Shown piece by piece: positions 3,998-58,390 of a DNA stretch of 64,000 bases. Location: positions 960,001 through 1,024,000 of the forward strand of contig CP084167.1 of NCBI GenBank assembly GCA_021513715.1, read 5' to 3'. Position 1 is the stretch's first letter. Every line of letters begins with the position of its first letter. The notes under the pieces are model-generated. The model worked only from the letters and a program-made list of their open reading frames with translations. It ran no database searches and was not told the DNA's origin. Position numbers and translations under genes: made by a program. Source of the DNA: Candidatus Heimdallarchaeum endolithica. GTDB taxonomy: Archaea; Asgardarchaeota; Heimdallarchaeia; Heimdallarchaeales; Heimdallarchaeaceae.

Positions 3998-4846
3998 TTA
4001 TTTAATCAATCCAATTTCTTTTAAAAAATTATTAGTAGCATCTTGCCAAGAAGGTAGTTTATATCCAATTACCTCTTCCAAACCAAATGAGTCTAAAACC
4101 GATAAAAAAGGTCTTTTAGCTGGTGTATGAAACTCATGAGAAAGAGCAGGAAGAAGCTCTCCTTCCCAGTTTATTTTGTCTAATATATATTTAGCCCATT
4201 GATATCGTGAACAATATCCAGAATTTGTCATATGATACAATCCATAATTTTCTGTTTTTATCAGGTTATAAGTTGCTTTTACAATATCGTTTGTATAACT
4301 TGGCGATGATATCTGATCAATAACGATCCTTAGTTTATTTTTATTTCTACTCCATTTTATAGTTTTAGTTATGAAGTTATCATTCCCTTTCCCAAAAACC
4401 CAGCTTAATCTTACTAGAAAAAATCTATTAGCTATATTTTGCACATTCCTTTCTCCAAGTGCTTTACTTTCTCCGTATTTTGAAATTGGAGATGGTTTAT
4501 CATAAATTGTATAGAGAAAACCTTTATGTCCATCAAAAACATAATCTGTAGAATAATGGACAAGTACAGCCTTTAATTCATTCGCAAGTAAAGCTAAGTT
4601 TTTTGGACCAAGCCCATTTATTCGATAAGCAGATTGCCAATCATTTTCAGCGTTATCTACAGCATTATAGGCAGCACAATTAATAATTATATCAATATCT
4701 TTATTTGAAACATATTCTCGCAGTTTTTTAAAATTTGTAATATCTAATTCGACATCGGTTGCAAAAAAATTAATCCCTTCTTTTTTAAAAAAGGTTTGGA
4801 ATGATTGACCTAATTGACCTTTTGATCCTGTAATTAATATTCCCAT
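3998..4846 (-). CDS. rmlD: dTDP-4-dehydrorhamnose reductase
   Basis: GSKGQLG, NCAAYNAVD, STDYVFDG, YGESK. Confidence 0.96.
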   Translation of the reverse strand: MGILITGSKGQLGQSFQTFFKKEGINFFATDVELDITNFKKLREYVSNKDIDIIINCAAYNAVDNAENDWQSAYRINGLGPKNLALLANELKAVLVHYSTDYVFDGHKGFLYTIYDKPSPISKYGESKALGERNVQNIANRFFLVRLSWVFGKGNDNFITKTIKWSRNKNKLRIVIDQISSPSYTNDIVKATYNLIKTENYGLYHMTNSGYCSRYQWAKYILDKINWEGELLPALSHEFHTPAKRPFLSVLDSFGLEEVIGYKLPSWQDATNNFLKEIGLIK

Positions 4847-5713: not shown

Positions 5714-6577
5714 TTAAATAAGACTTAATAAATACCGTCCATAATCAGAATTTGAGTGCTCTTTTGCTAAATGTTCAAGTTGTTCATCGTCAATATATCC
5801 AAGTCTATATGCGATTTCTTCTAAACAAGCAATATAATATCCTTGTCTTTTTTGAATAGCTGCAACAAAATTACTAGCTTCTATCAAACCATCAAATGTT
5901 CCAGTATCAAACCAAGCTAATCCACGGCCTAACAATTCAACTTTCAACTTACCTCTTTTTAAATATTCAATATTAAGATCAGTAATTTCCAACTCTCCTC
6001 GAGGAGATGGTTTAAGATTCTCAGCAAACTTAATTACATTATTATCATAGAAATATAAACCAGGGATAGCATAGTTTGATTTTGGAAAAGCTGGTTTCTC
6101 TTCTAAGGAGATAACATCCATTGTTTCTTCATCGAATTCTACAACACCAAAAGCAGTTGGATTATTAACATAGTAGCCAAAGATTAATGCTCCTTCCTTT
6201 AAAGTGGCTGCTTTTCTTAAAATTGAAGAAAAACCTTGACCATAAAAGATATTATCACCTAAAATTAATGCAACATTATCAGAACCAATAAATTCTTTAC
6301 CAACAATAAAAGCATCAGCTAAACCTCTTGGTTTTTCTTGGATTTTATAGGAAAACTGAACACCAAGTTGAGAACCATCTTTTAATAAGTTCTTGTAGTC
6401 TGTAATATCTCTTGCAGTTGAGATAATTAAAATATCTTTTATCCCTGCAAGAAGAAGTGAAGACAGTGAGTAATAAATCATAGGTTTGTCATAAACTGGC
6501 AGAATTTGCTTTGAAATTGCTTTTGTTATAGGATATAATCTTGTTCCTGCTCCTCCTGCTAATACAATCCCTTTCAT
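5714..6577 (-). CDS. rmlA: Glucose-1-phosphate thymidylyltransferase
   Basis: [44 protein letters not shown]. Confidence 0.97.
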
Positions 6578-6630
6578 TTCGATTATAAGGAGAAGTACCC
6601 TATACTATAAAGTTTTCGTAAGCACTAATC

Positions 6631-7393
6631 TGTAGTGTCTAGTTTTTATACCACCTCCTAGGTAAAAAGGAACTAAGGGGAGGATGTCCCAAGCTCTGAT
6701 GAGGACGAACGAAATTATAATGGAGCATAAAGAGAGTAAGAAAACCAGAAAGATGAGTAGAGCCATAGACGGCACGGATAGGACAAGTGCAGTGGAGAAT
6801 AGAATGAAACCAACGATAACTCTTAAGGGTGGCATTAAAACGTTCAATATAGGAGCGTAAACCACCTTTGATAACGGAGATTTTGATACCTAGACGAAGT
6901 AAGACAGGATACCATACCCCTGCATCTGTAACGACAATACGAGGCTTAAAACCCCAACATTTGAACCAATAACGGAAAGTTAGTAAACATTCAAGATTAC
7001 TCCGTCCTTTAGTAATACTAAAACCCAGTAAAGTCTTGTTGTAAGGATCTAACGCGAACCACAGATATATTGAGCCTTGAGAGGTCCTAATCTCTGTTTC
7101 ATCTACTACTATAATCTCTGGTATTCCCCCTCTCTCTGCTACAATTCTATGTAAACTTTCCCTAAAGAGCCTGAACTTCTTTACCCAATACAATAATGTT
7201 TGATGCGTTAAACCATTCTTCCATGCTACTGTCCTCAACCCATTCTTTGAACCAATATATTCATAAATAGCTTTTATTATTATTTTTTTGGGGACTCTGC
7301 ATCTCTTAAAAAGAGCAGATAGTTTTTGTGTTTTCATATCTTACTATTAGAGTCCCCACAAATATTTTTGTCGGAAGAAAACTAGACACTACC
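6631..7393 (-). mobile_element. IS6-family insertion sequence, apparently intact
   Basis: TIRs (t/g)GTAGTGTCTAGTTTT at 6631-6646 and 7378-7393; direct repeat GCACTAATC at 6622-6630 and 7394-7402. Confidence 0.9.
6639..7337 (-). CDS. IS6-family DDE transposase
   Basis: 232 aa; VVDET, VTDAG.WY, IERFNATLK, YNFVRPHQSL. Confidence 0.88.
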   Translation of the reverse strand: MKTQKLSALFKRCRVPKKIIIKAIYEYIGSKNGLRTVAWKNGLTHQTLLYWVKKFRLFRESLHRIVAERGGIPEIIVVDETEIRTSQGSIYLWFALDPYNKTLLGFSITKGRSNLECLLTFRYWFKCWGFKPRIVVTDAGVWYPVLLRLGIKISVIKGGLRSYIERFNATLKSYRWFHSILHCTCPIRAVYGSTHLSGFLTLFMLHYNFVRPHQSLGHPPLSSFLPRRWYKN

Positions 7394-11254: not shown

Positions 11255-12307
11255 CTATTCAACCATATCCCATGTAATTAAACTATCTTTTGGAATATCT
11301 TTTGATGCTTTTTTACCAATTATAAGTTCAATATTTTTTGGTTCCATACCAAAACCTGGTCTTCGAATAGATATATTATCATAAGTAAAATATTCACCTT
11401 TACTAATATCCATTGAAGAAGTAAGACTTTTTCTCGCTACTTTTGATATTTCTAATTCAGACGGAATGGGTTTTTTTATTCCACTTCCTAATGCTTGTTC
11501 TGCTAAACGAACAGCTTCAACCATTTCTTTAAATTCATGAAGGTCTAAAGATGCTTTATGATCCGGGCCTTCCATTGATTTATCAAGTGTAAGGTGTTTT
11601 TCTACAACTACACTATCTAAAGCAACACTCATAACTGGAATAATATAACCCGGGGAATGATCAGAGATTCCAGTTAAATGACCAAAAGTCTTACGAAGAG
11701 TATCAATAGACTTCAAATTATAATCTTCTACTCTTGCAGGATAATTAGACACACAATGAAGAAGAATAATCTTGCTATTTCTTTCACTGTAAAAACAATT
11801 CAAAGCATATTCGATATCACATAAATTTGCCATTCCTGTTGACATAATTATTGGTTTTCCAGTTTTTGCTACTTGCTTAAGAAGTGGGGGATTAATTATT
11901 TCTCCAGAAGGGATTTTATAGGCACTAACATTAAGTTGAGATAGGAATTTTGCGCTTTCTACATCAAAAGGAGAAGAAAGGAAAATGATTCCTTTTTCAT
12001 CACAGTATTCCTTTAAATACTCGAAATCAGAGAAAGAAAGCTCATATTTTTTTAATAATTTGAATTGATCTTCTATTTTCGCAGCTTCAACCTTTTGATA
12101 TTTAGCTAAAGGTGCATCCTTTATAACTAAATTTTCAGTTTTATAGGTTTGAAACTTAACAGCATCTGCTCCACTTTTTTTTGCTTCATTAATTAGTTTT
12201 GTAGCAATGTCTAAATCTCCATTGTGATTGATCCCTGCTTCTGCTATAATAAAAACTTGTCCAGATTTTAATTCTTTATTTTCAATTTTTATGGGTTGTA
12301 TAACCAT
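11255..12307 (-). CDS. neuB: Nonulosonic acid synthase (NeuB/LegI) with SAF domain
   Basis: IIAEAGINHNG, ADAVKFQ, LLHCVSNYP, SDHS, EKHLTLDK, GPDH, RKSL...RPG.G. Confidence 0.94.
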   Translation of the reverse strand: MVIQPIKIENKELKSGQVFIIAEAGINHNGDLDIATKLINEAKKSGADAVKFQTYKTENLVIKDAPLAKYQKVEAAKIEDQFKLLKKYELSFSDFEYLKEYCDEKGIIFLSSPFDVESAKFLSQLNVSAYKIPSGEIINPPLLKQVAKTGKPIIMSTGMANLCDIEYALNCFYSERNSKIILLHCVSNYPARVEDYNLKSIDTLRKTFGHLTGISDHSPGYIIPVMSVALDSVVVEKHLTLDKSMEGPDHKASLDLHEFKEMVEAVRLAEQALGSGIKKPIPSELEISKVARKSLTSSMDISKGEYFTYDNISIRRPGFGMEPKNIELIIGKKASKDIPKDSLITWDMVE

Positions 12308-12389
12308 AGGAATTAGTAACATTTTAACTTCATAATTATTTTGGTATATTGAAGAAAAGACATAAAAAGTAAAATAAAACTGTATCTTT

Positions 12390-13532
12390 ATGCAAATATG
12401 CGTTTTTACATGTTCACGCTCCGAATATTCTCTTCTATTTCCAATAATGAAAGAAATTGAAAAAAGCGAAAGTCTTTCTTTACAATTAGCAATAACAGGG
12501 ACTCACTTATTGCCTGAATTCGGAATGTCAAAGAATATAATTCAAGAAAATGGGTTTAATATCGATTTAGAAATACAAGTACCTCAATATGAAGATACGC
12601 TAGAATTCCAAACTGAAGTCGCAAGTTCTGTTTTAAAGAAACTTGGAGAAAACTTAAAGAAATTTAAGACTGACATACTTTTAGTTTTAGGAGATAGATA
12701 TGAAGTACTTCCTGCTGTTTATGCAGCATTTTTGTTGAATATACCTATAGCTCATATTCATGGTGGAGATCTTTCTGGAAATATCGATAACTCAATAAGA
12801 TTTGCTATATCAAGGCTTTCTCATATCCATTTTTGTGCAACAGAATTAAGCGCTAACAGATTAAGAAAAATTGGAGAAGAAGAATGGAGAATATATGTTG
12901 TTGGAAGTCCATCAATTGACAATGTTAAAAACGTTCCAATGGAAGAAAACAAAATCAGAAAAAAATATGGTATTCCATTAGATAAAGAGTTTCTTTTAGT
13001 AGTCTTACACCCAGAAACGGGAGGAGAGGCAAAACCTCAAGAAAATTTTGTTAAAATTGCTCTGGATGCAATAAAAGAATTAAAACAAGAAACAGTATTC
13101 ATATACCCTAATTACGATTATGGAAGTTCACAAATTACAAATGAAATAAAGAAACTAGAAAAAGTTGAGTGGTTTCACATTTTGAAGAATGTCCCACACA
13201 CAGATTATATAAATCTCTTAAGGTCTTGTTTCTTATTGGTGGGAAATTCAAGTAGTGGGATTATTGAAGCTTCAGCAATAAAAAAACCAGTCATAAATTT
13301 AGGAAATAGACAAGATGGAAGAGAAAGAGCAGGAAATGTTATTGATTTACCTTTTGATAAAGATATAATAGTTAAAACAATTAAAAAACTGCAAAAAGAC
13401 AAAAATAGTTATTTGAAATATACAAACACTAAAAATATTTACGGAAAAGGAAATTCCGCGCAAAAAATTGTAAAAATCTTGGAAAGTATAAAAGTAAATC
13501 AAAAATTATTAAAAAAACACATAATATTATAA
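12390..13532 (+). CDS. neuC: Hydrolysing UDP-GlcNAc 2-epimerase (NeuC/LegG)
   Basis: RSEY, LGDRYE, HIHGGD, HP, GNSSSGIIEA, GNRQDGR. Confidence 0.92.
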   Translation: MQICVFTCSRSEYSLLFPIMKEIEKSESLSLQLAITGTHLLPEFGMSKNIIQENGFNIDLEIQVPQYEDTLEFQTEVASSVLKKLGENLKKFKTDILLVLGDRYEVLPAVYAAFLLNIPIAHIHGGDLSGNIDNSIRFAISRLSHIHFCATELSANRLRKIGEEEWRIYVVGSPSIDNVKNVPMEENKIRKKYGIPLDKEFLLVVLHPETGGEAKPQENFVKIALDAIKELKQETVFIYPNYDYGSSQITNEIKKLEKVEWFHILKNVPHTDYINLLRSCFLLVGNSSSGIIEASAIKKPVINLGNRQDGRERAGNVIDLPFDKDIIVKTIKKLQKDKNSYLKYTNTKNIYGKGNSAQKIVKILESIKVNQKLLKKHIIL

Positions 13533-46976: not shown

Positions 46977-47379
46977 CCTCTTATTTTTCAAATTATTAAA
47001 CTTTAAGCAAAAAAGTACATGAATTCTAAAAATCAGAAGAAAAAACTATGCGTTTTAATAAATATTATACAACCAAAGTAAGTTCTAATTAATGAAATAA
47101 TATATTGTCATTTTTACAGTCCCAACTCTGTCATAACACTCACAATGATTCCTCTTTGACCAACTTGATCTTAAAATAATGAATCGAAATTAATTGGAAA
47201 AATACATTCTTTTGCTTTATTTTATTTTTACTGATTATTTTGTATAACTACTATGTATCTTTTTCTTGTTCCTGCTTTAATTTCTATATATTCACACTCT
47301 TTTTTTTCACAATACAGCTTAAACATTTTTTCTAATTGTTTTTTGTGATATTTTTAAAAATATTACTTGCTATTTTGTA

Positions 47380-47852
47380 TGTTCTTTGTGCCCGTCCATG
47401 CTCAAATGTATGACCTTTTCGTCGTCGTAGGTTACCCCAAAAATGTTAGAAAAGATAAAGGAAAAGGGAAAGAAAAAAGTACTCGTTATTTTCGCAGAAA
47501 ACTTCACCAGTGGAATTTTTCTTTAGTTCTTTCTCTTCTCCGTCGAGCATTGATATTAGAAGGTTTTGCTCCTCATCGTATTCTTATAATAGACGAAAGA
47601 GGAACATCTTCTCATTGTTCCCGTTGTGGAAAAGAAGTTTCTCGTCCCGTTAGAGGGTTAGTACACTGTCCCTTTTGTAACTATACTTACCACTCTGATT
47701 TAACAGGAGCTAGAAATATTGCTCGTAAGTTCCTTAGTCATCTTTTTCGTCCCCGTGCTACAACTATTGCTGATTACTTTACTGGTCAAAAATTCAGTCT
47801 TACTCATTACACTGTTTGCCGAGGACTCAGCCATTGGTTGCAGTCCCAGTAG
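47380..47852 (+). pseudogene. tnpB: 5'-truncated TnpB (RuvC-II, Zn finger, RuvC-III)
   Basis: VVVGYP, DERGTSSHCSRCG, CPFC, HSDLTGARNI; WED and RuvC-I absent. Confidence 0.85.
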
Positions 47853-48085
47853 ACAAAAAGAAATAATTACTCTTATATTCAAGGGCTAGTTATTCTTTCA
47901 TTTTTGTCTCTCGTGGAGTGAAGAAAAGAGCTTACAACTCTTTTTTTCTTTATGATTCCCCCGATTCGTGTATGACGTCTGTCTTAATCCTTCTTCTTTC
48001 ATTGTATGTTAGGATTAAGTTCTCAAGAAACTGACAATTATCTATCTTTGTTTTTTTCTTGAAAGACTGAGTTCGACAAACTTCG
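47820..48085 (+). ncRNA. Candidate TnpB omega-RNA scaffold / transposon right end
   Basis: Stems at 47823-47846, 47851-47909, 47921-47950, CTTAATCCT/AGGATTAAG (47983-48019), TCAAGAAA/TTTCTTGA (48023-48062) directly after tnpB. Confidence 0.6.
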
Positions 48086-48135
48086 CAAAAAGTAAATCAT
48101 GCTTAAAAAAAAGAGAAAAATTTAATGATACAATT

Positions 48136-48552
48136 TTAAATCTGTATTCTTATCCAATAGGCAGGATGGTCTGACTGTCCTTCTTCAACATATTGTGCGT
48201 CTAATACAGTAAAACCACTACTAAGAAAGATATGATCGATATTATTTTCAGCAACTGTTCCACATCTTAACATCCAAGAGTCTTCAAAGACAGCAACGGT
48301 GACGTTATATTCTATTGAATAAGGACAGAAGTTAAAATCTCCTATAAAGATAACATTAGAGAGACCTTCAGTCCTACTCACCATTTGTTGTTGTTGATAA
48401 ATGGTTGTTTGTTTCTCCTCTCCTGCAGGATGATTAACAAAAACATTGAAAATGTGATTACCCACTGTTATCTGTGCTTGTGCTGAGCCAATATGCTCTT
48501 GGTCACTATAAGTAAAAACTCGTTGGAGGAAGGTAACCCATTCATTAGGCAA
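48136..48552 (-). pseudogene. C-terminal fragment of an EEP (endonuclease/exonuclease/phosphatase) protein
   Basis: NH, GDFN, IDHIF, SDH motifs; N-terminal half missing. Confidence 0.7.
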
Positions 48553-48657
48553 GACTTGAACGAAAACCGTAGAAGATGTTTTTACGTAAAAATTGTTTTC
48601 TTTCTTATTAATTTATTCTTCTCAATAACTTTATATTTTCTAAAAAGATACAAGCTT

Positions 48658-50511
48658 GTGCGTTACCAAGACTCATTTAACTCTTCATTATACTCTATTA
48701 TTCCACAAAGCAAATTAAAAGGGGAGGTTAAAAAAGCAATTCTATTTGAATTACTAAAAAATTTTAGTCAATTTAAGAAAGAGGGAGAAAATGAATTAAT
48801 TTACAAAACTACTGAAGCGATCAAAAAACTAGTGGAAGAAAGAGAATATAAAACAAGCAATAAGCATTTAAACAAAAGAGTAGAAGTTAAAACTTACATA
48901 GAAAAGGTAAAACGAAAAATTTCACTTGATGAAATGCATTCGACAAATAAAATCACCCCCTACCATCTTTCACTTCTAGTAAATCAAAGCGAAGAAATAA
49001 AAAAAGCCAAAGGTGAATTCAATACTCCTTATTATATTGGAAAATTTTTACACAAACAAATTTTTTCTTTTTATTTAAAAGAACAGAAGAAAAGCTTGAT
49101 AGAGCTATCTCAAACTAATTGGGCAGATCTTGCCTGCGGTACTGGAAATTTAGTTATGACAAATTTTTATGAGACAAAAAGAAAAGCTGAGAAAAGTGAA
49201 ATAGATCAAGAAGAATTTTTTTATAATCTCTTAAAGAACCTCTATGCTACAGAGATTGATCCTCTTTCTCTTGCTCTCTGCAAACTAAGAATTCTACTTT
49301 TTTTCTCCTATTTTTTTCCTGATATACCCATCCAAAACAAAGATATAACACTGGAGAAGAAAAATATCTTAGTTAAAGAACAAGAAGAACCTTTTCTTGA
49401 CTACATCTTGCTTAACCCTCCTTTTATGACCTATGGATTAAGAAATGGTCAAGAGTACAACGAAGAATTGAAGCAATATTTACGTTCTCACTATTTTTCA
49501 GCCGAATATAAGCTTCCACTCTATACTCTTTTCATCGAGCGTTCTATCGATTTATTAAAAGAGGGAGGATTACTTGGTATTATCAGTCCTGACAGTTTTC
49601 TGTTAGGGAGATATTATTCCAAGATAAGAAAGTTTATCCTTAACAATAGCCAAATCAAACAGATTAGTTTATTAGATTACGAAGCGTTTGACAAAGTCAC
49701 TTTAGGAAGAACAGCTATATCATTCTTTGAAAAAAAGAAAAACAAAAAGGATAACAAAAAACAAGAATTTTACTCATATTTTTTTCCCTCTTATAATCAT
49801 TTTATTAGAAAAGATAGGAAACAAGGCTATAAAAACAATTTATCTCAAACATGGTTAGAAAAAAATGAATTTTGCCGTTTCTACATGTTTTTTGATGAGA
49901 AAGAAGAAAAAATAGTTGAAAATTGGTTTGGAAAAGCAGAACAGAGATTAGCGGAACTTGTCACAATTCATACAGGGGTTAGAAGCAAAATAGGACAAAA
50001 GAAAATAATATCCACGGAAAAATTAGGTTCTAACTGGAAAAAGGGTCTAATAAAAGGAAAACAAGTCTTACCATATGGTTGTATATACAAGGGACTTTGG
50101 TTGAACATCGATCGTACTCTTTTATGGTCTGGTGGGTTTAACCCTGAAATCGTGGAAAAAACTAAAATTTTACTAAGACAGACAGGCGATAGACTTATAG
50201 CTTGTGTTGATACAGATAACTATTACCATTTAAACAACATACATTCTCTTGTTCCAAAAAAGAAAAACGTTGATCTTTACTCTTTAGCAGTTATTTTAAA
50301 TTCTGAAGAATTCAATCAAGTTTATCAAATTCTAAGTATGGAAAGGGGAAGAACTTTTGCCCAAATAGATATGGATTTTTTACTTGAACTCCCAATCATA
50401 GAACTAACAAACAACCAGAAAGAGAGATTAAGAAAATTCTACCTAAAACAAAAGGAGAGGAGAGAGAAAGGAGAGGAGTTAGAACCTACAAAACTAAGCA
50501 ATCTACTATGA
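48658..50511 (+). CDS. N6-adenine DNA methyltransferase, copy 2
   Basis: DLACGTGN, NPPF; GTG start (VRYQD) inferred from copy 1 (VRYKD). Confidence 0.88.
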   Translation: MRYQDSFNSSLYSIIPQSKLKGEVKKAILFELLKNFSQFKKEGENELIYKTTEAIKKLVEEREYKTSNKHLNKRVEVKTYIEKVKRKISLDEMHSTNKITPYHLSLLVNQSEEIKKAKGEFNTPYYIGKFLHKQIFSFYLKEQKKSLIELSQTNWADLACGTGNLVMTNFYETKRKAEKSEIDQEEFFYNLLKNLYATEIDPLSLALCKLRILLFFSYFFPDIPIQNKDITLEKKNILVKEQEEPFLDYILLNPPFMTYGLRNGQEYNEELKQYLRSHYFSAEYKLPLYTLFIERSIDLLKEGGLLGIISPDSFLLGRYYSKIRKFILNNSQIKQISLLDYEAFDKVTLGRTAISFFEKKKNKKDNKKQEFYSYFFPSYNHFIRKDRKQGYKNNLSQTWLEKNEFCRFYMFFDEKEEKIVENWFGKAEQRLAELVTIHTGVRSKIGQKKIISTEKLGSNWKKGLIKGKQVLPYGCIYKGLWLNIDRTLLWSGGFNPEIVEKTKILLRQTGDRLIACVDTDNYYHLNNIHSLVPKKKNVDLYSLAVILNSEEFNQVYQILSMERGRTFAQIDMDFLLELPIIELTNNQKERLRKFYLKQKERREKGEELEPTKLSNLL

Positions 50512-51323
50512 GAAGTGAAAAAATGAAAGAGAAGCCAATATTAACCATTGATGCAAAGTATTTGGGAATGAAATTTGACGAATTAATAAGGAACTATCCA
50601 TATTTAAGTAAATTTTTGATCAGCTCTAGACCACCTAAATTTGATTTAGGAGAGCCATTAACTCTTTCAGAACTGAACAAGTGTCTCTTCAAAGAATTAA
50701 GTGAACTAGATATAGAAGTGCCATTCAATCATTTAATTCCAGCCTATAGTCTCAGAGCTGCGAATGCACAAGCAATAAATGAACTAGTAAAAAGTGATGA
50801 GCCAATTATAGAAATTGGTACAGGGGCAAGTGGAGCAATAGCATTAATATTAGCAAAGAAGTACGGAAAGAGAATTATAGCTACAGAAATAAATGCTGAA
50901 TCTTATGAAAGTGCAAAAAAGAATATCCAGCAAAATAAGTTGGAAAAGAAAATAACTTTATTCAAATCTAATGGAGAAATAATTAAAGGAATAATACCGA
51001 AAGGAAATTATGCTGCTCTAGTAAGTTATCCGCCTATTTATCCTTCTGATTTAACCAAACTTAAGAAACGAAGAGGGTGGAAGGGAGTTAAAACTGAGCT
51101 AATCGCAGGAAAGAATGAACTAGATTTTGCTATCCAACTAGTCAATGAATCTTTAAATAGCAAGGATGTGGAAATAGATTTTGTTACTGTTCAAGTAATG
51201 AATAAAGTTCAACTATTCAAGCTTCTTAATCTTTTTTCTGATAGAAAAGAGTGTTATTTTATTGAGATTATAGCAGGAACGAGAAAAAGATACATACTAG
51301 TTGTAGACAATAGATACAAATAG
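50508..51323 (+). CDS. RlmF-related SAM-dependent methyltransferase
   Basis: HLIP, EIGTGASG, ATEI, SYPPIY; ATGA overlap with MTase copy 2. Confidence 0.75.
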   Translation: MRSEKMKEKPILTIDAKYLGMKFDELIRNYPYLSKFLISSRPPKFDLGEPLTLSELNKCLFKELSELDIEVPFNHLIPAYSLRAANAQAINELVKSDEPIIEIGTGASGAIALILAKKYGKRIIATEINAESYESAKKNIQQNKLEKKITLFKSNGEIIKGIIPKGNYAALVSYPPIYPSDLTKLKKRRGWKGVKTELIAGKNELDFAIQLVNESLNSKDVEIDFVTVQVMNKVQLFKLLNLFSDRKECYFIEIIAGTRKRYILVVDNRYK

Positions 51324-51517: not shown

Positions 51518-51746
51518 ATGTTTTTAATTTTCTTATTTTTGCTGATTGTGTAGTTTTACTATTTTTCTCATTTTATCTTTCTTTGTATTTTTTCCAATAA
51601 GTTGTTAGATTTCAGAGTATAATAATTCTATTCTTCTAAACAAATTTGTTTAACTTTTGTTGTTTTTCAGTAATTAGAAATAGATTATTAGATTTGTAAT
51701 GCTTCAAATTTTTCTGATAAAAAAACCTCTAGTTTTTTGTTAATTG

Positions 51747-52646
51747 TTACTCTTGTAATTTATTTTCTTTAGTCTTTTCTGAATTTGTCCACTTTCTGAA
51801 ACTTGTATCCAACAGATCTAGAAATTCACTTCCCACTTCTTTTTTCTCATTATTCTCTGTAGAAGTTATTATTATTGAATCTCTATCTAGTTTTATTGGT
51901 AATCCCATTGCTTTATCTTCTATAATCCACTTTTTTATTTTTTCTATATCTTTTTCACCTAAAAATTCTGCTAGTTCTTCTATTTTTATTCTATGGTAAG
52001 CGTCCATTATTTTTTCGAATCTTTCTTTCCATTCTTTTATTTTCTTTAATCTTTCAAAGTGTTTATTTTTTTCTTCTTTAATATTTTTATATTTTTCAGG
52101 GAATTCTTTTATCTCTGATTTTATTTTATTTATTACTTCTTTTGCTTGTCCTAGCTCAACCTTTGTTGAACTTACGAGGAAAAATGGGAAACTTATCTTC
52201 GAGAATTTTGATAAGATATCATTGTATTTTTTTTCCCACTGTTCTAATTTTTCTTCAGTATCACATTTTTCATTGTAGCTCGACAAGAATATTTCTACAT
52301 ATTTTTCTACAGTTTTTTTGAGATTTTCTAAAAGGTTAAAACAACATTGATAAAACTCTTCTTCCAGTTCTATTAATGTAGCATTTACATTTTGCTTTTT
52401 ATTTAACAATTCTAAATAGAATTGGTCATTTTCTTGGTTTGCATCTGCTAACAATTGTTTAGAATAGTTATTCATTGTTTCAATTAGCGATGAAACTTTA
52501 TACCTTACCTGTCTTATTTGTTCATATATTTCTTCTATTTGTCCATAATTTATAGAAGGTAGAATCTGTTTTATTTTACTAAGTTTTTTTTCTAAACTCG
52601 AATACTCTTCATAGGTTTGTTTCATTTCTTGTAGTGCAATAGACAT
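51747..52646 (-). CDS. Coiled-coil protein with C-terminal PCI/winged-helix-like domain
   Basis: Long E/K heptads, then IKIEELAEFLG...IKKWII...IKLDRDSIII and an amphipathic tail. Confidence 0.55.
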   Translation of the reverse strand: MSIALQEMKQTYEEYSSLEKKLSKIKQILPSINYGQIEEIYEQIRQVRYKVSSLIETMNNYSKQLLADANQENDQFYLELLNKKQNVNATLIELEEEFYQCCFNLLENLKKTVEKYVEIFLSSYNEKCDTEEKLEQWEKKYNDILSKFSKISFPFFLVSSTKVELGQAKEVINKIKSEIKEFPEKYKNIKEEKNKHFERLKKIKEWKERFEKIMDAYHRIKIEELAEFLGEKDIEKIKKWIIEDKAMGLPIKLDRDSIIITSTENNEKKEVGSEFLDLLDTSFRKWTNSEKTKENKLQE

Positions 52647-53062
52647 TTTTCACTAAAGTGAATCATTTTTTACCTTTAAATCTTTTTAACTATTATTTCT
52701 ATTCTAATTAGAAAAAATATTTTTTCTTTTCTCTTGATCTTGAATAATTTGTCATTTTTATCTGGGAAATCATTTTTTTTCTATATAATTCACACAAACA
52801 AATCAAACTTGACCTAAAAATAAACTATATAATCTTACTACTCAACAAAATCATTTTTTTATTTTTTTATTTCTTATTTTATTGCTATTTTGGTTATTCT
52901 TTCTCCACTTCTACCTTTTGTTCTTTTTTTCTCTTTTATTCTTCTACTTTCTATCTTTCAAATTTATTGATACTTTCAGTTATTAAATTCACCTTTTATT
53001 TTACTATTCCAAAAGATTTATAGTTTCAAAGTCCAAACTACGCGCTTAAATAAGGTGTTATT

Positions 53063-54715
53063 ATGAAAGCACATTTAAGTTTCCAATCCACTTTAAAGGA
53101 TATTTCTGTTTCTCCCAGTAAATGGACGAGAGAATCGATAATTTTACAACGAACAATAATAAAGGAGTTTGAAAATTATTTTGCTTCCTTAGAAAGGATT
53201 GACCAACAACGTAAGAAGTTTATCCTTCTTTCTGTCTTTTCTTACTCTTTTTTTGCTATATTAGCCATAATTTTAGGCGTTTTTGTAGGCTATGTTTTTC
53301 TTTCTCTCCTTGCACTCAGTGGACTTGGCTATTTATTCCAGTGGTTAGCAAAAAACAAGAAAGTAGAATATGATAGTTTGGAGCCTGAAAGTAAAATTAC
53401 AGGGCTATTCACTCTTAAATATCCTATTTTCAGTTATTTTCTGCCAGATAATGAGCTTTTTCTTTACGATGGAGGAGGACTTTTACCTTTTGTTGAAATC
53501 TCTATTCCTTTCTTCAAAGACTATCAAAAAATCGAAGAAGCACTTTATGAGCACCAACAATCTGACGAATTTATGCAACTTTATCTTGAGGGTGACCAGC
53601 TTGCTCTTTATAATTGGATTAAAGAGAACCCTTCGCTTAAAGATAAATTATCCCAACACGATATTGACGCTATTTGGGAATATCTTTACAACAAGATCAA
53701 GAAATCTACTGATAGATCCAACCAAGTTCATCAAGTTTTTGAGTTGCCTATTATTCAGCGTGAATCTTCTGTTTATAACGATATTTTACGTATTTCTCCT
53801 TTTCTTACCAAGGAGGCTGTTAATCCTGATGAAGAGTTTGATATTCTTAACAGTTGTCTAACTGAATACAGTATTAATAAAATAGAATTATGGAACAATG
53901 AAATTAAGGAGATGTATCGTTCTATCCAAGGTGAGCCCATTGTTCATACTTTAAGAAACACCGTGGGTCGAATTAACCGTGAAACTGCTAATATTTTAGA
54001 AATGCTTGGTGGAGATTTAAAGGAGATAGTTAGTTCTACTGTTCCTATTGACAACACTCTTTTTTCTGATTTTCACTATATTCGCTTATGTCCTGTTTGT
54101 GGCGAGAAAAGAATAGCTATAGAGCGCAATACTTCTGACTTTGAAACTTGGATTAATAACAAGGTTCTTGGAGGAGTTTTGGAAGACATTGATTTACAGA
54201 ATCCTGCACCAGAAGCCAAAGATAAAATTGACACAATGCGTTACGAATTACAGGAATTTATTAACAAAACTATTCCTGTTTCTAAAGAAATAATCCCCTA
54301 TATTAATGCTGATTTAACTTTGATGGAACTTGGAATGGATGGTCGTTATTATTGTCCTAAATGCTCTAACAGTTCTGAATATCTTGAAATTATCGATGCT
54401 TATATTCCCTTAGCTCATGCTTATGAAGTTAGGATGTATGAGTCACAAGATATTATGTTAGAAAATGCCAGAGCTATTATTCAAAACATTGCTAGTATAG
54501 TCAATACCAAAAATAACAGAATGACCAATTTAGCTCCATTACAGGTTGAACTTGAAGAGAGTAAGAGTGAATACTTGAAAATAGCTGCAGAGCGTAAGAA
54601 AGCTTCAGAGATGAACAAGTTACTCAGGAACTTGACTAAAGAGTCTGAAAAAGCAATGAAAGAACTTGAATCTGTTCGAAGAAAAGTAGAAAAAATAAGG
54701 AGCAGGGTGAGTTAA
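53063..54715 (+). CDS. Membrane-anchored protein: TM hairpin, two CxxC, C-terminal coiled coil
   Basis: Hydrophobic aa ~53-95; CPVC and CPKC; heptad-rich C-terminus. Confidence 0.7.
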   Translation: MKAHLSFQSTLKDISVSPSKWTRESIILQRTIIKEFENYFASLERIDQQRKKFILLSVFSYSFFAILAIILGVFVGYVFLSLLALSGLGYLFQWLAKNKKVEYDSLEPESKITGLFTLKYPIFSYFLPDNELFLYDGGGLLPFVEISIPFFKDYQKIEEALYEHQQSDEFMQLYLEGDQLALYNWIKENPSLKDKLSQHDIDAIWEYLYNKIKKSTDRSNQVHQVFELPIIQRESSVYNDILRISPFLTKEAVNPDEEFDILNSCLTEYSINKIELWNNEIKEMYRSIQGEPIVHTLRNTVGRINRETANILEMLGGDLKEIVSSTVPIDNTLFSDFHYIRLCPVCGEKRIAIERNTSDFETWINNKVLGGVLEDIDLQNPAPEAKDKIDTMRYELQEFINKTIPVSKEIIPYINADLTLMELGMDGRYYCPKCSNSSEYLEIIDAYIPLAHAYEVRMYESQDIMLENARAIIQNIASIVNTKNNRMTNLAPLQVELEESKSEYLKIAAERKKASEMNKLLRNLTKESEKAMKELESVRRKVEKIRSRVS

Positions 54716-54716
54716 A

Positions 54717-55796
54717 ATGTCAGAGAGAACAGATAATTTACTTTCTAGAGTTTTATCAGAGTTACAGAAGATGAACAACCGTATCATGGAACTGAACAAA
54801 TCAATGAGCCACATTAGTAGTCAATATGAAAAAGTTGTCAAGATGCAGGATCAGTCTATCAAGGTTCAAAAAGACCAGAAAAGTCTAATTGATGCTCAGT
54901 TAGACTATTTGTATACTACAGCTGAGTCAATTAATCGTATGACCATTATGGACTTAAACACCCAACTTATCGAGACTGATATTACCAAACAAACTTCTGA
55001 AACTCTTGAAGTTGAAGCTAAATTGAGAATGGAGAGAGCCATAGAGAAGTACAGAGATGAATATGGAAAAATTATTAGAGATTTTGTTAATGGTATTGTA
55101 GCAAATATTAAACACTTTGCCAAACTTAATGAAGAACATATCAGGCCTTTATTCGAAATCTTAGACAATTTAGAAAGAGTTTACAAGATTCTCAGTTCTT
55201 TTACTGCTGAGCATCCTGATTTAGAAATTTTGGATTATGCTGTTAGTACCTTTGATGAAAGGAAAAACAGGATAGATCAATCATATTCAGAAACAAAAGA
55301 AGTTTTGACTGAATTTATTACTAAAAGAGAGGAAGCTGAAGACACAATTAACACTTTCTATGTTAAAAATGAGGAGTTGAATTTAGAAGATATTCCTGAA
55401 GAAACGATTTCTTTAATATCCATTCCTTTTGCTTTTACTTTCTTAGAAAACGATAATGGATTAAGATTAAACATTAATGGTCCACTTAAACAAGAGCCAG
55501 ATTTTCTCTCTTCTTATAAAGTTCAATTTAAAGATCTTTGTCCATCGATGAGTAATGACTTATATTCTAATAAGAATACAAAAAAGAAGGTTTTAAGAAA
55601 AGTGAATGATCAACAGAATTTAATCAAACAGGGGAATATGGCTCACATAATTGAAGACTTAACCGAGCTCTTGACTTCTTCTGGTTTTTATCCTAAACAT
55701 CTCAAAAAACTCTCTAAACTTTTCAAGAGTCCTAATATTTCATTTAATGACACACAAGCTGAGTTAGGGACACAATTTGGAGGAGATGAACAATGA
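54717..55796 (+). CDS. Coiled-coil hypothetical protein
   Basis: Heptad-rich N-terminal ~200 aa; starts 1 nt after the upstream stop. Confidence 0.7.
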   Translation: MSERTDNLLSRVLSELQKMNNRIMELNKSMSHISSQYEKVVKMQDQSIKVQKDQKSLIDAQLDYLYTTAESINRMTIMDLNTQLIETDITKQTSETLEVEAKLRMERAIEKYRDEYGKIIRDFVNGIVANIKHFAKLNEEHIRPLFEILDNLERVYKILSSFTAEHPDLEILDYAVSTFDERKNRIDQSYSETKEVLTEFITKREEAEDTINTFYVKNEELNLEDIPEETISLISIPFAFTFLENDNGLRLNINGPLKQEPDFLSSYKVQFKDLCPSMSNDLYSNKNTKKKVLRKVNDQQNLIKQGNMAHIIEDLTELLTSSGFYPKHLKKLSKLFKSPNISFNDTQAELGTQFGGDEQ

Positions 55797-57004
55797 GAGA
55801 ATATTATCAGAAAGTTGAAGGTCTCAACATTGATCCTGCAGGAAAGAAATGTCTAGTTACTTCTAAATTTGAAGGTGTTACTCCTATAGTTGATTTTGAT
55901 GTTATTTCTATTAACTCCAATGCCAAAGTTTCTGGAAGTGTTTATGCCAAAAGGCTTGTTTCTATTGAACCTGGAGCAATAATTAGCAGACCTATTGTTT
56001 CATTGGATAGCATAGAGATCAGGAGCGGAAAAGTGGAAGGAAAAGCCAATCATCCTACAATAATCATCGGTGACGTTTCTGCACTTGAAAAGATTAAAGT
56101 TTCTAAATTAAGCAACAGCGAGGAGCCCATTATTATCTATGGTAATGTTTTAAGTAAACACATCGAAATTGATGGGCCATTATTTGTAAGAGGAAATATC
56201 TATGTTTCAGATTCTTTAATTATTAATGAGCCTACATTTATTGCTGGAGAGATCAGAGCAGGACTGCCTACTACTGATGCAGAAGTTTTTCTACAAAATG
56301 CTTCCTTTATTTCTTTGTATTGTCAAGGAAAAGTAGAACTTGGACCTAATAACACTACTTTAGCTCCTGTACTTGTAGGTACAGATCAAATTAAGATGGA
56401 AAAGGACGGTAAAATAAGAGTAATTATTGACCGATGTCTAAATTGCAAGCTTAACTCTCCTAATCCTTTTCTCTGTCCTCTTTATCTTGAAGGTAAATGT
56501 GAGGAGTTTGAGTTTCTTTCTGAAAACGACATCTACAAGTATAAGGGTAAATACTTTCTTAACCTCTATTGGCGAGCAAATTACAAAATAATAGCTAACC
56601 ATTTCTTAATGAACCAAATTCAAAGAAACGTTTACAAACGTTTGAGAGCGCAAACTGCTTCTACCTCTACTATAGGAACTTATAACTATAAGAATTTGCT
56701 CAAACAGATGTATAACGATCTTTTATCTTTTCCTGTTTCAACTAAATACATTGATGAGTGGATACAAAAGAAGTTACAAGAAGTTAAAGAAAAAAGATTA
56801 AAGGCAAAGAAAATAGAAGCACTTGAAGAGACAGAACAATCAACAGAAGAAGAACAAGAACAAACAACAGAAGAAAGAGAAGAGGAACAAGAAATAGAAT
56901 TTGAGGAAGTAACAGTGGATACAGGGGAAGAAGAGGAGGAATTAAAACAATTAGACGATGAACTGTTTAAGCAACTAGAAAACAAACTAAAGTTTGATGA
57001 TTAA
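55793..57004 (+). CDS. Bactofilin-like / polymer-forming beta-helix protein with Cys cluster and acidic tail
   Basis: Repeats V.GSVYA, IIGDVSA, IYGNVLS, VRGNIYV, IAGEI; C-x2-C-x8-C-x6-C; Glu-rich C-terminus; ATGA overlap. Confidence 0.6.
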   Translation: MREYYQKVEGLNIDPAGKKCLVTSKFEGVTPIVDFDVISINSNAKVSGSVYAKRLVSIEPGAIISRPIVSLDSIEIRSGKVEGKANHPTIIIGDVSALEKIKVSKLSNSEEPIIIYGNVLSKHIEIDGPLFVRGNIYVSDSLIINEPTFIAGEIRAGLPTTDAEVFLQNASFISLYCQGKVELGPNNTTLAPVLVGTDQIKMEKDGKIRVIIDRCLNCKLNSPNPFLCPLYLEGKCEEFEFLSENDIYKYKGKYFLNLYWRANYKIIANHFLMNQIQRNVYKRLRAQTASTSTIGTYNYKNLLKQMYNDLLSFPVSTKYIDEWIQKKLQEVKEKRLKAKKIEALEETEQSTEEEQEQTTEEREEEQEIEFEEVTVDTGEEEEELKQLDDELFKQLENKLKFDD

Positions 57005-57157
57005 GTTTTTTTTATTTCTATTCTTTTTTCCAATAATTAGATGTTTTTTCATACTTTTCTTTTTTTAAACTATTCTTTGACTAGTAGTATAGTATTCTTT
57101 TTATTCTCTTGTTTAGCTATTTTACACAATAAACAAAGCTATAGGAGAAGTTCGAGA

Positions 57158-58390
57158 ATGGAAGAAGATAAGGACTACTTTTATGATATCCAATTAGACA
57201 AAAAAAACTTCTTGAATGATACAATAAAAGAAACTCTTCAATCTTTCATTAATTTTTTTCCTTTCTATGTTATGCTTATTGATGAGGATCATCACATTCA
57301 GCTTGCTAACAACGCTATCTTAGACCAATTGAAAATGGATCCTACTGCTATTGTTGGTTGTTATTGCCCTTCCAAAATTCACGGTTTAGATTCTCCTTTT
57401 CCTGGTTGTCCTCTTGAAGCATCTAAATCTTCTCTTAAAGCTATAGAGCGAGAATTTTATTTTAAAGAAGAAGATAGGTGGATTCGCTCTACTGCTTACC
57501 CTACTAATTTTTTTACTTCTGAAAACAAACGTCTTTTTATTCATCTTACTATTGACATTACTGCTCAGAAAAATGCTGAAAATAAGTTGAAGTGTTCTGA
57601 GGAAAAGTATCGTCTTCTTGCTTCTAAACTACAGAAGCTTAATGATTTACATAAGAAATTGAATGAGATCCAAGAGATTTTTATTTACGAACGAGATAAG
57701 ACTTCTTTAATTCGTCGTATATGTTCAAAGTTGTCAGAACTTATTAGTTATGATCTTTGTTGGATAGGTATTTTAGATTCGGGTAAGTTAAAGATTTTGG
57801 CTAGTTCTAGTTCTGATTCTGATTCTGGTTCTAGTTCAAGTTCTAGAATTAAAGACTTTTTTACTACTGAGATTGACCTTCATTCTAATGGTAGTTATTC
57901 TTGTTTACATGAGGTTATTGAACAAAAACAATTAATTGTTATTAACAAGGACAATTTTTCTTGTTCTGATTGTCTATTCCACGACACTTCTTCACCTAAT
58001 TCTATCTTAATTTTTCCTATGATTGTTAACGACAATGTTTATGGTATTATCAGTTTATATAAGTCTGAGAGTCACATTTCTAAAAACGAGATATCTATTT
58101 TACAGACTGTTGCTAATGCTTTAGCTTTTGCTCTTCAATCTATTGAATTAATTGAAAGTCAGGATGAAGCTTTTTCTCAGCTTAAGAGAAATATTGATTA
58201 TTTAGAAGATATAATCGATAAAATTAGAAATCCTCTTACTGTTATTCAAGGTTTCGTTGAACTTTATATGAATGACAAAAATAGTACAGATATTGTTAAA
58301 GAGCATATTAACCAAATTGTAGAGATTCTTTCTAAAGTTGACGAAAAATATATTCGTTCTACAGACTTATTCAAACAGTATACTGAATAA
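57158..58390 (+). CDS. PAS-GAF sensor with degenerate HisKA-like helix and no HATPase
   Basis: PAS (AN...G..C...HG...CP...DITAQK), GAF (WIG...PM...YG.I...LA), DKIRNPLTVIQG; start set at MEEDKD. Confidence 0.8.
   Translation: MEEDKDYFYDIQLDKKNFLNDTIKETLQSFINFFPFYVMLIDEDHHIQLANNAILDQLKMDPTAIVGCYCPSKIHGLDSPFPGCPLEASKSSLKAIEREFYFKEEDRWIRSTAYPTNFFTSENKRLFIHLTIDITAQKNAENKLKCSEEKYRLLASKLQKLNDLHKKLNEIQEIFIYERDKTSLIRRICSKLSELISYDLCWIGILDSGKLKILASSSSDSDSGSSSSSRIKDFFTTEIDLHSNGSYSCLHEVIEQKQLIVINKDNFSCSDCLFHDTSSPNSILIFPMIVNDNVYGIISLYKSESHISKNEISILQTVANALAFALQSIELIESQDEAFSQLKRNIDYLEDIIDKIRNPLTVIQGFVELYMNDKNSTDIVKEHINQIVEILSKVDEKYIRSTDLFKQYTE

Follow-up and report, generated by a model that had tools for sequence, protein, structure and literature searches.

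The locus at positions 53063-57004 of the 64,000-nucleotide stretch of Candidatus Heimdallarchaeum endolithica DNA analysed here (contig CP084167.1, positions 960,001 to 1,024,000; hereafter the window) raises a simple question: what do three tightly packed genes, the last of which resembles a bactofilin, do together? Gene 1 (53063-54715, 550 amino acids), gene 2 (54717-55796, 359 amino acids) and gene 3 (55793-57004, 403 amino acids) are open reading frames (ORFs) of the forward strand, the first two separated by a single nucleotide (54716) and the last two overlapping in an ATGA (55793-55796). This is the layout described in the original prediction, which was made from the sequence alone and proposed a cytoskeletal scaffold with gene 1 as membrane anchor, gene 2 as adaptor and gene 3 as a polymerising beta-helix. 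Comparison across genomes shows a fixed three-gene unit with a predicted membrane anchor, which is rare and has swappable partners. As to its function, we give roughly even odds (about 50%) to a cytoplasmic docking platform that would recruit membrane-remodelling or phosphorylation machinery upon local membrane stress, most likely on the cytoplasmic face of the membrane. The way in which Asgard archaea direct and regulate the remodelling of their membranes is relevant to how the eukaryotic endomembrane system arose.

The order 1-2-3 is kept in 20 loci from Asgard archaea, Thermoproteota and other lineages (the window together with L004, L005, L029-L032, L036-L038, L040-L042, L044, L046, L048 and L081-L084), although contig ends cut some of them short and close kinship links some, so that not all are independent. 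A gene 1 profile matches 8 of 400 Asgard genomes (~2%), gene 2 adjoins gene 1 in all eight, and gene 3 is present in seven, the contig of the eighth stopping within gene 2. Single-sequence searches gave just one or two relatives, and the wider set needed profile searches, which for gene 3 returned 54 representatives (50% clustering), 33 of them with E <= 1e-10, including members from Njordarchaeia, Bathyarchaeota, Thermofilum and Thermoplasmatota. Among the loci that include upstream DNA, gene 3 was never seen without genes 1 and 2. The trees of the three genes have well-supported pairs in common, and their pairwise identities correlate at 0.66-0.77, a figure inflated by kinship. The synteny survey that had been proposed as a check thus finds the three genes co-conserved, as predicted. 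That unrelated genes are packed here by chance, or that gene 3 is a left-handed hexapeptide acyltransferase (see below), is extremely improbable; the former would have to account for an identical gene order in 20 loci, which takes the packing beyond chance. At L083 (163-1928) the gene 1 homologue is broken into two ORFs beside intact genes 2 and 3, through decay or an assembly error.

The trio was not found in the single-contig genome of a congener (G001), despite syntenic flanks: G001 matches the window at 51522-51615 and from 57047 onward (82-95%), with 265 other bases between. Judging from this alignment the module is accessory, since it is absent while both flanks are matched. The rarity of the trio limits the weight that it can carry, and it is not a core Asgard cytoskeleton.

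Gene 1 carries the parts first read from its sequence. Its one strongly hydrophobic stretch (19-residue Kyte-Doolittle windows starting at residues 51-78, maximum 2.71) corresponds to a transmembrane (TM) hairpin at approximately residues 51-96, inserted in an N-terminal head. Beta-strands at 122-151, a helical region and, in the model, a terminal helix at 447-549 follow, and two CxxC pairs (343/346 and 431/434) form a putative split zinc site. The N-terminal hydrophobic hairpin recurs in 15 of 15 homologues checked, as do at least two CxxC/H motifs, and the role of gene 1 as membrane anchor stands. Gene 2 was described as mostly coiled coil, which holds for its long N-terminal helices but overlooks a conserved C-terminal alpha/beta head with strand 231-236 and the invariant P237 and P256.

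Neither protein could be assigned to a family, and neither has a relative in the PDB or a distinctive match by fold. A Foldseek search of the PDB was without significant match for gene 1, and the VIA and Atlas structure searches returned generic helical hairpins only for gene 1 and no usable match for gene 2, which does not in itself make the folds new. The possibility that the two are paralogues of each other was rejected (hhalign, 1.7-1.8%). The gene 2 profile weakly matched a 520-residue single-chain protein with a head/coiled-coil/head outline, whose family occurs in each of the 11 genomes searched from two other Asgard families (L070-L080) and has a member in the host genome (G000, a single contig of 3.33 Mb; C1:3062540-3064171). 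The head of gene 2 aligns with the C-head of this family (hhalign 93.5%, E 2e-7), the strand pair of gene 1 aligns with its N-head (E 0.0017), and the N-terminal motifs of gene 1 and of the single-chain family align on either side of the inserted hairpin. Genes 1 and 2 therefore look like a split, membrane-anchored derivative of a soluble single-chain protein, a reading that is well supported for gene 2 and weakly supported for gene 1 as the other half. Unlike the trio, the single-chain archaeal family (G117 type), itself uncharacterised, is one soluble chain without TM hairpin or zinc site, and no beta-helix gene adjoins it in the loci seen. Its host member has tldD/pmbA-like genes nearby, and tldD/pmbA likewise adjoin two of the trio loci, L036 and L040.

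The multimer modelling suggested with the original prediction gave a controlled three-chain model. With gene 1 (residues 100-530), gene 3 (1-285) and gene 2 (45-325) as the scored partner, ESMFold2 returned a score of 0.74 against 0.00 for the best of three controls; of 80 solved complexes 58 attain the 0.74 mark, as do 2 of 110 mismatched pairs, counts that are only roughly applicable here. The trimer runs share at least 90% of contacts, and the predicted score in the local distance difference test (pLDDT) of gene 2, at least 74 in the trimer, drops to 44 with gene 1 replaced. The best contacts join strand 120-125 of gene 1 to strand 231-236 of gene 2, as expected if the two genes derive from a split, and set helix 446-529 of gene 1 antiparallel to residues 155-73 of gene 2. 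The contacts of gene 3 with gene 2 form one stripe (residues 34, 53, 69, 71, 96, 98, 120, 137, 139, 155-160, 176, 178, 192-195 and 248-266) that includes the invariant P192 and W260 (98%). The model supports binding of the three proteins and is no proof of it. Gene 2 contacts both of the others in the model, as the proposed adaptor would, but it looks like one part, the second, of a split protein and folds jointly with gene 1, so that a simple adaptor role is doubtful.

The AlphaFold2 model of gene 3, built from 44 sequences (pLDDT 86, predicted template modelling score (pTM) 0.79), is a right-handed beta-helix at approximately residues 7-212, followed by a Cys4 knuckle, a W260-R261 hairpin, helices and a variable acidic tail. 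The Thermus bactofilin 6RIB_A, its best structural match by root-mean-square deviation (rmsd), fits residues 37-157 (55901-56263, forward strand) over 100 of 101 residues at 1.6 A (Z 9.3), so the bactofilin geometry originally proposed is recovered, and the [VI]xG[DNS][VI] repeats are present at 46, 91, 115 and 132. At the profile level the agreement is only partial: PF04519 gives a signal of 27.2 bits, just under its cut-off of 27.9 (closest homologue 27.6), and matches 15 of 44 family members weakly, while databases label some members CcmA/bactofilin. Foldseek against the PDB gave no significant match for gene 3, which does not in itself show a new fold. Right-handed beta-helices superpose on the model at 1.6-4 A, in contrast to the left-handed LpxA, LpxD and GlmU at 11-14 A. 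The acyltransferase alternative, which had been named as a possible refutation and draws on weak LpxA/GlmU matches (Foldseek E >= 0.33, profile E 0.005), is thereby refuted at the model level; gene 3 also has only one hexapeptide-type tandem match.

The cysteine cluster exists, with a spacing that differs from the x2-x8-x6 first reported: C215-x2-C218-x9-C228-x7-C236 (56435-56500, forward strand) forms a knuckle at the C-terminal end of the beta-helix, a predicted metal site in which all four residues are at least 90% conserved in the 44 sequences. The Glu-rich tail is also there (34% Glu over the last 70 residues) but is not conserved, the homologues terminating in zinc ribbons, winged helices or other tails. 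Long forms of gene 3 (937-972 residues; L005:6231-9071, L048:3984-6902, L032:1044-3857) have added zinc ribbons and winged-helix-like regions, and the last ~80 residues of the L032 protein resemble, by eye, a small beta-grasp domain.

The highest-scoring structural match of gene 3 is Cthe_2159 (Z 14.8, rmsd 2.8, 187 aligned), followed by SRRP and tapirin. These matches, with glycosylation genes upstream within the window, would suit a ligand-binding or catalytic beta-helix of the polysaccharide-lyase or adhesin type displayed on a membrane stalk. However, identities are 9-14% and the matches are generic to right-handed beta-helices. Gly, Pro, Cys and Trp make up the invariant columns, together with one Arg pair and a single Asp, and the helix faces show no catalytic cluster. 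Gene 3 is also probably cytoplasmic, since it has no signal peptide or hydrophobic segment (maximum hydropathy 1.01). We regard the ligand-binding or catalytic role as very improbable.

Does gene 3 polymerise? If it did so in the manner of bactofilins, tethered via genes 1 and 2, it could shape the cell. The close fit to 6RIB_A, the weak PF04519 signal and the CcmA/bactofilin names would agree with this, and the halofilins HalA and HalB polymerise though AlphaFold predicted no filaments (PMC11459167). However, bactofilins polymerise through the ends of the beta-helix, stacking end to end (10.1101/617639), whereas the bactofilin-like core of gene 3 is flanked by strands 11-36 on one side and by windings, the Cys knuckle, the WR hairpin and a helix (158-280) on the other, both flanks being conserved in the 44 sequences. 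The order of these elements suggests that the ends of the beta-helix are capped. End-to-end filaments are thus doubtful: extra windings and the conserved Cys4 knuckle enclose the core, which makes it internal, and the Pfam score is below cut-off. The distribution of the family, rare and accessory, also speaks against a filament, as does another bactofilin in the host genome that is above the cut-off. A cell-shape filament is therefore unlikely in our view, and the polymerising cytoskeleton is a doubtful part of the original prediction. The separate host bactofilin (G000 C1:2320551-2321441, equal to L066:1015-1905; 296 residues) scores 43 bits in three stretches and has a helical extension at its N-terminus; proteins of 230-300 residues like it occur in several Asgard families (L033-L035, with a tandem pair in L035).

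Gene 3 shares with the canonical bactofilins (PF04519; TtBac 6RIB, C. crescentus BacA) a right-handed, three-faced beta-helix and an expected membrane-linked role. It differs in the length of the helix (~200 residues), the flanking elements and the knuckle, in having neither an amphipathic tail nor a TM domain of its own, and in its rarity; it is always encoded with two dedicated partners, to which it is predicted to bind sideways. The halofilins offer no closer parallel. HalA has a head-to-head pair of bactofilin domains linked through a helical hairpin, and HalB a signal peptide, a bactofilin domain and five TM segments (PMC11459167). Compared with these descriptions, gene 3 has neither the head-to-head duplication nor any helix between residues 7 and 212, and it lacks the signal peptide and five-TM domain.

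What, then, would the platform recruit? A divergently oriented fourth gene (51747-52646, reverse strand), missed in the original prediction, encodes 299 residues with a coiled coil, a PCI-like winged helix and a short acidic/aromatic tail. Full-length counterparts stand at the same divergent position in L036 (28% over 251 residues, E 4e-33) and L037, a PCI-positive relative lies convergently beside the trio in L004, the winged-helix module is fused to gene 3 in L032 (independent E-value (iE) 7e-12), and the fourth gene is absent together with the trio from G001. It is likely, from this gene-neighbourhood pattern, to be an accessory partner of the trio. Elsewhere other genes take the adjoining place: a WD40-zinc ribbon protein directly follows the trio in L029-L031, an SPFH and double zinc ribbon gene in L042 and L082, and a STAND-like ATPase gene in L040. 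Kinase genes lie nearby in L038, L042, L044 and L046, being the first gene after the trio in L038 and L046, and vWA and metallophosphoesterase genes are neighbours in L038, FHA and PP2C genes lie near gene 3 in L045, and TPR/HEAT genes also occur close to the trio. Finally, in L081 (6633-13126; Logan SRR24204449) two Snf7 genes (36.5 bits, above cut-off, and 24.1 bits) and a CdvC/Vps4-like AAA ATPase gene directly follow distant trio homologues. [quoted passage not shown] In Thermoplasmata-type loci, a ~35-residue tail (GFDV..LE.LL...KQIEG) ends several unrelated proteins around the trio (L041:5148-6029 and 11541-12515; L045:1971-3863 and 4155-4649; L082:11491-12459; L083:5115-5792 and 5805-6728) and is a candidate shared docking motif.

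The docking platform is likelier than a cell-shape filament because the trio adjoins membrane-repair and signalling genes in other microbes. In such a platform, genes 1 and 2 would first fold as a heterodimer, as the model supports, with the terminal helix of gene 1 antiparallel to the N-terminal helices of gene 2 and a gene 2 strand completing the sheet of the gene 1 head; the pair would represent two halves of an older soluble head/coiled-coil/head protein, the first of which gained a TM hairpin and a zinc site. The beta-helix of gene 3 would then lie along this rod, bound from the side by one of its faces and by the Cys-knuckle/WR end, a step that is also supported by the model, under weaker control, and would not stack end to end like a bactofilin. 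The variable tail of gene 3 and the swappable fourth partner may in turn recruit or regulate membrane-remodelling and phosphorylation machinery, as the gene neighbourhoods suggest, that partner being the winged-helix protein in the window and, in other genomes, a kinase, SPFH scaffold, WD40 protein, STAND-like ATPase or ESCRT-III/Vps4. By analogy, the likeliest role would be to sense or patch local membrane stress or damage, following the logic of PspA-YdjGHI or of an upstream recruiter in the style of ESCRT-I/II.

These analogies extend to gene content. The B. subtilis pspA-ydjGHI (samGHI) and related Psp modules combine a membrane anchor, zinc-ribbon proteins, SPFH and an effector of the ESCRT-III superfamily in a similar logic, and Psp loci typically hold right-handed beta-helix (Toastrack) scaffolds and SPFH-zinc-ribbon proteins (PMC11237479). 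However, the trio has no match to the PspA, YdjG, YdjH or Toastrack families, and its SPFH and Snf7 neighbours are optional and found in other genomes only. In archaeal ESCRT loci, winged-helix genes are typical, as are genes for SPFH and for kinases/phosphatases (Makarova et al., PMC11188069). The trio resembles the archaeal system, the eukaryotic ESCRT-I stalk and the ESCRT-II winged helices in pairing a hetero-oligomeric coiled-coil stalk with a winged-helix partner, in the SPFH, kinase and phosphatase genes of its loci and, at one locus, in the two Snf7 genes and the Vps4-like ATPase gene that directly follow it. The likeness is functional only. Neither in sequence nor in fold was a match to Vps23/37/28 or CdvA found, the host genome has no ESCRT genes adjoining the trio, and bactofilin goes unmentioned in PMC11188069. 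Compared with ESCRT-I/II, CdvA and YdjG/H, genes 1 and 2 gave just generic helical-hairpin matches (Z up to 9.3, with a mediocre model) and no PDB profile match. Genes 1 and 2 also share the head/antiparallel coiled coil/head outline of SMC, Rad50, arcadin-4 and ASRP, which are ATPase families (PMC9389158); assignment to arcadin-4/SMC was rejected, there being no Walker A/B or signature motif in the conserved columns and no significant NCBIfam or Pfam match. We class the trio as a variant of bactofilin-fold membrane scaffolds and not with the bactofilin, halofilin, SMC or ESCRT families.

Several observations weigh against the docking platform. The monomer model of gene 1 is mediocre (pLDDT 65, pTM 0.41). 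Since the complex was scored for gene 2 only and gene 3 was kept in every control, the interface of gene 3 is less well tested, and halves of split genes tend to pass such a test, though no solved structure of the family was found. The winged-helix module of the fourth gene has ~17 relatives among the ORFs of the host genome. No SPFH, kinase or ESCRT gene adjoins the trio in the window, and no homologue of the L042 kinase was found in the host genome. An ESCRT-III/PspA effector gene is likewise missing from the window, and the ESCRT link comes from one homologous locus, L081, with distant homologues of genes 1 and 2 (domain iE 2e-5 and E 5e-4 among 11 proteins).

The same variable partners could also belong to a membrane-based defence or conflict module, in which the rod senses virus entry or toxins and kinase, caspase-like, STAND or ESCRT partners respond. 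The patchy distribution of a 5.4-kb block gained or lost as a unit is what such a module would show, partners and tails vary, caspase, pseudo-kinase and STAND-like neighbours occur in L081 and L040, and the surrounding region is variable, with remnants of insertion sequence (IS)/TnpB elements and methyltransferases. However, PADLOC matched none of its families to genes 1-3, the core holds no nuclease, NADase or pore effector, the queries used brought up no relatives in plasmids or viral contigs, and many loci have housekeeping neighbours. We consider a defence function unlikely.

Returning to the docking platform, a bolder version of it can be put forward only tentatively. The trio might be an undescribed, portable upstream recruiter: a membrane-anchored split coiled-coil rod with a repurposed, non-polymerising bactofilin-fold clamp, which would connect through winged helices to ESCRT-III/Vps4 or to SPFH scaffolds, with kinases exerting control. 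Such a recruiter, present in Heimdallarchaeia and exchanged between archaea and possibly bacteria, would be a functional counterpart of ESCRT-0/I/II in prokaryotes. No paper describing the trio was found in the literature searched, with subscription journals outside its coverage, in agreement with the original statement that no named system with this layout was recognised. New here are the controlled three-chain model, the split-gene origin proposed for genes 1 and 2, the co-travelling winged-helix gene, the trio-free site in the congener and the ESCRT-III/Vps4 locus beside trio homologues. The trio offers a testable three-protein complex with predicted interface residues, two unannotated protein families and a bactofilin fold that may have changed from filament to adaptor.

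In regards to its own signals, the locus has a promoter-like TFB recognition element (BRE)/TATA sequence of archaeal type upstream of gene 1 (CAAAAGA-TTTATA, 53010-53022), a putative ribosome-binding site (AGGTG, 53053-53057) and, after gene 3, an oligo-T terminator-like tract (57005-57036), all on the forward strand. The tract holds one copy of a perfect 13-nt direct repeat (51588-51600 and 57024-57036) that brackets the four-gene block and is present also in L037. The repeat has no clean support as an attachment site: G001 has 265 unrelated bases at the site, the left-flank homology to G001 extends 15 nt beyond the repeat, and the word is found 14 times in the AT-rich host genome. A copy of gene 1 that is 96% identical carries the label Candidatus Heimdallarchaeaceae.

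The DNA to the left of the module (47367-51323) is rearranged between congeners and holds a TnpB/IS remnant with many copies in the genome, a gene that resembles N6-methyltransferases and carries an NPPF motif (48493-50511), and another methyltransferase gene (50508-51323) that is inverted in G001. To the right, 57158-58390 encodes a PAS-GAF-HisKA protein whose ATPase domain is not recognisable, apparently a kinase-less sensor, with ~95% DNA identity in G001.

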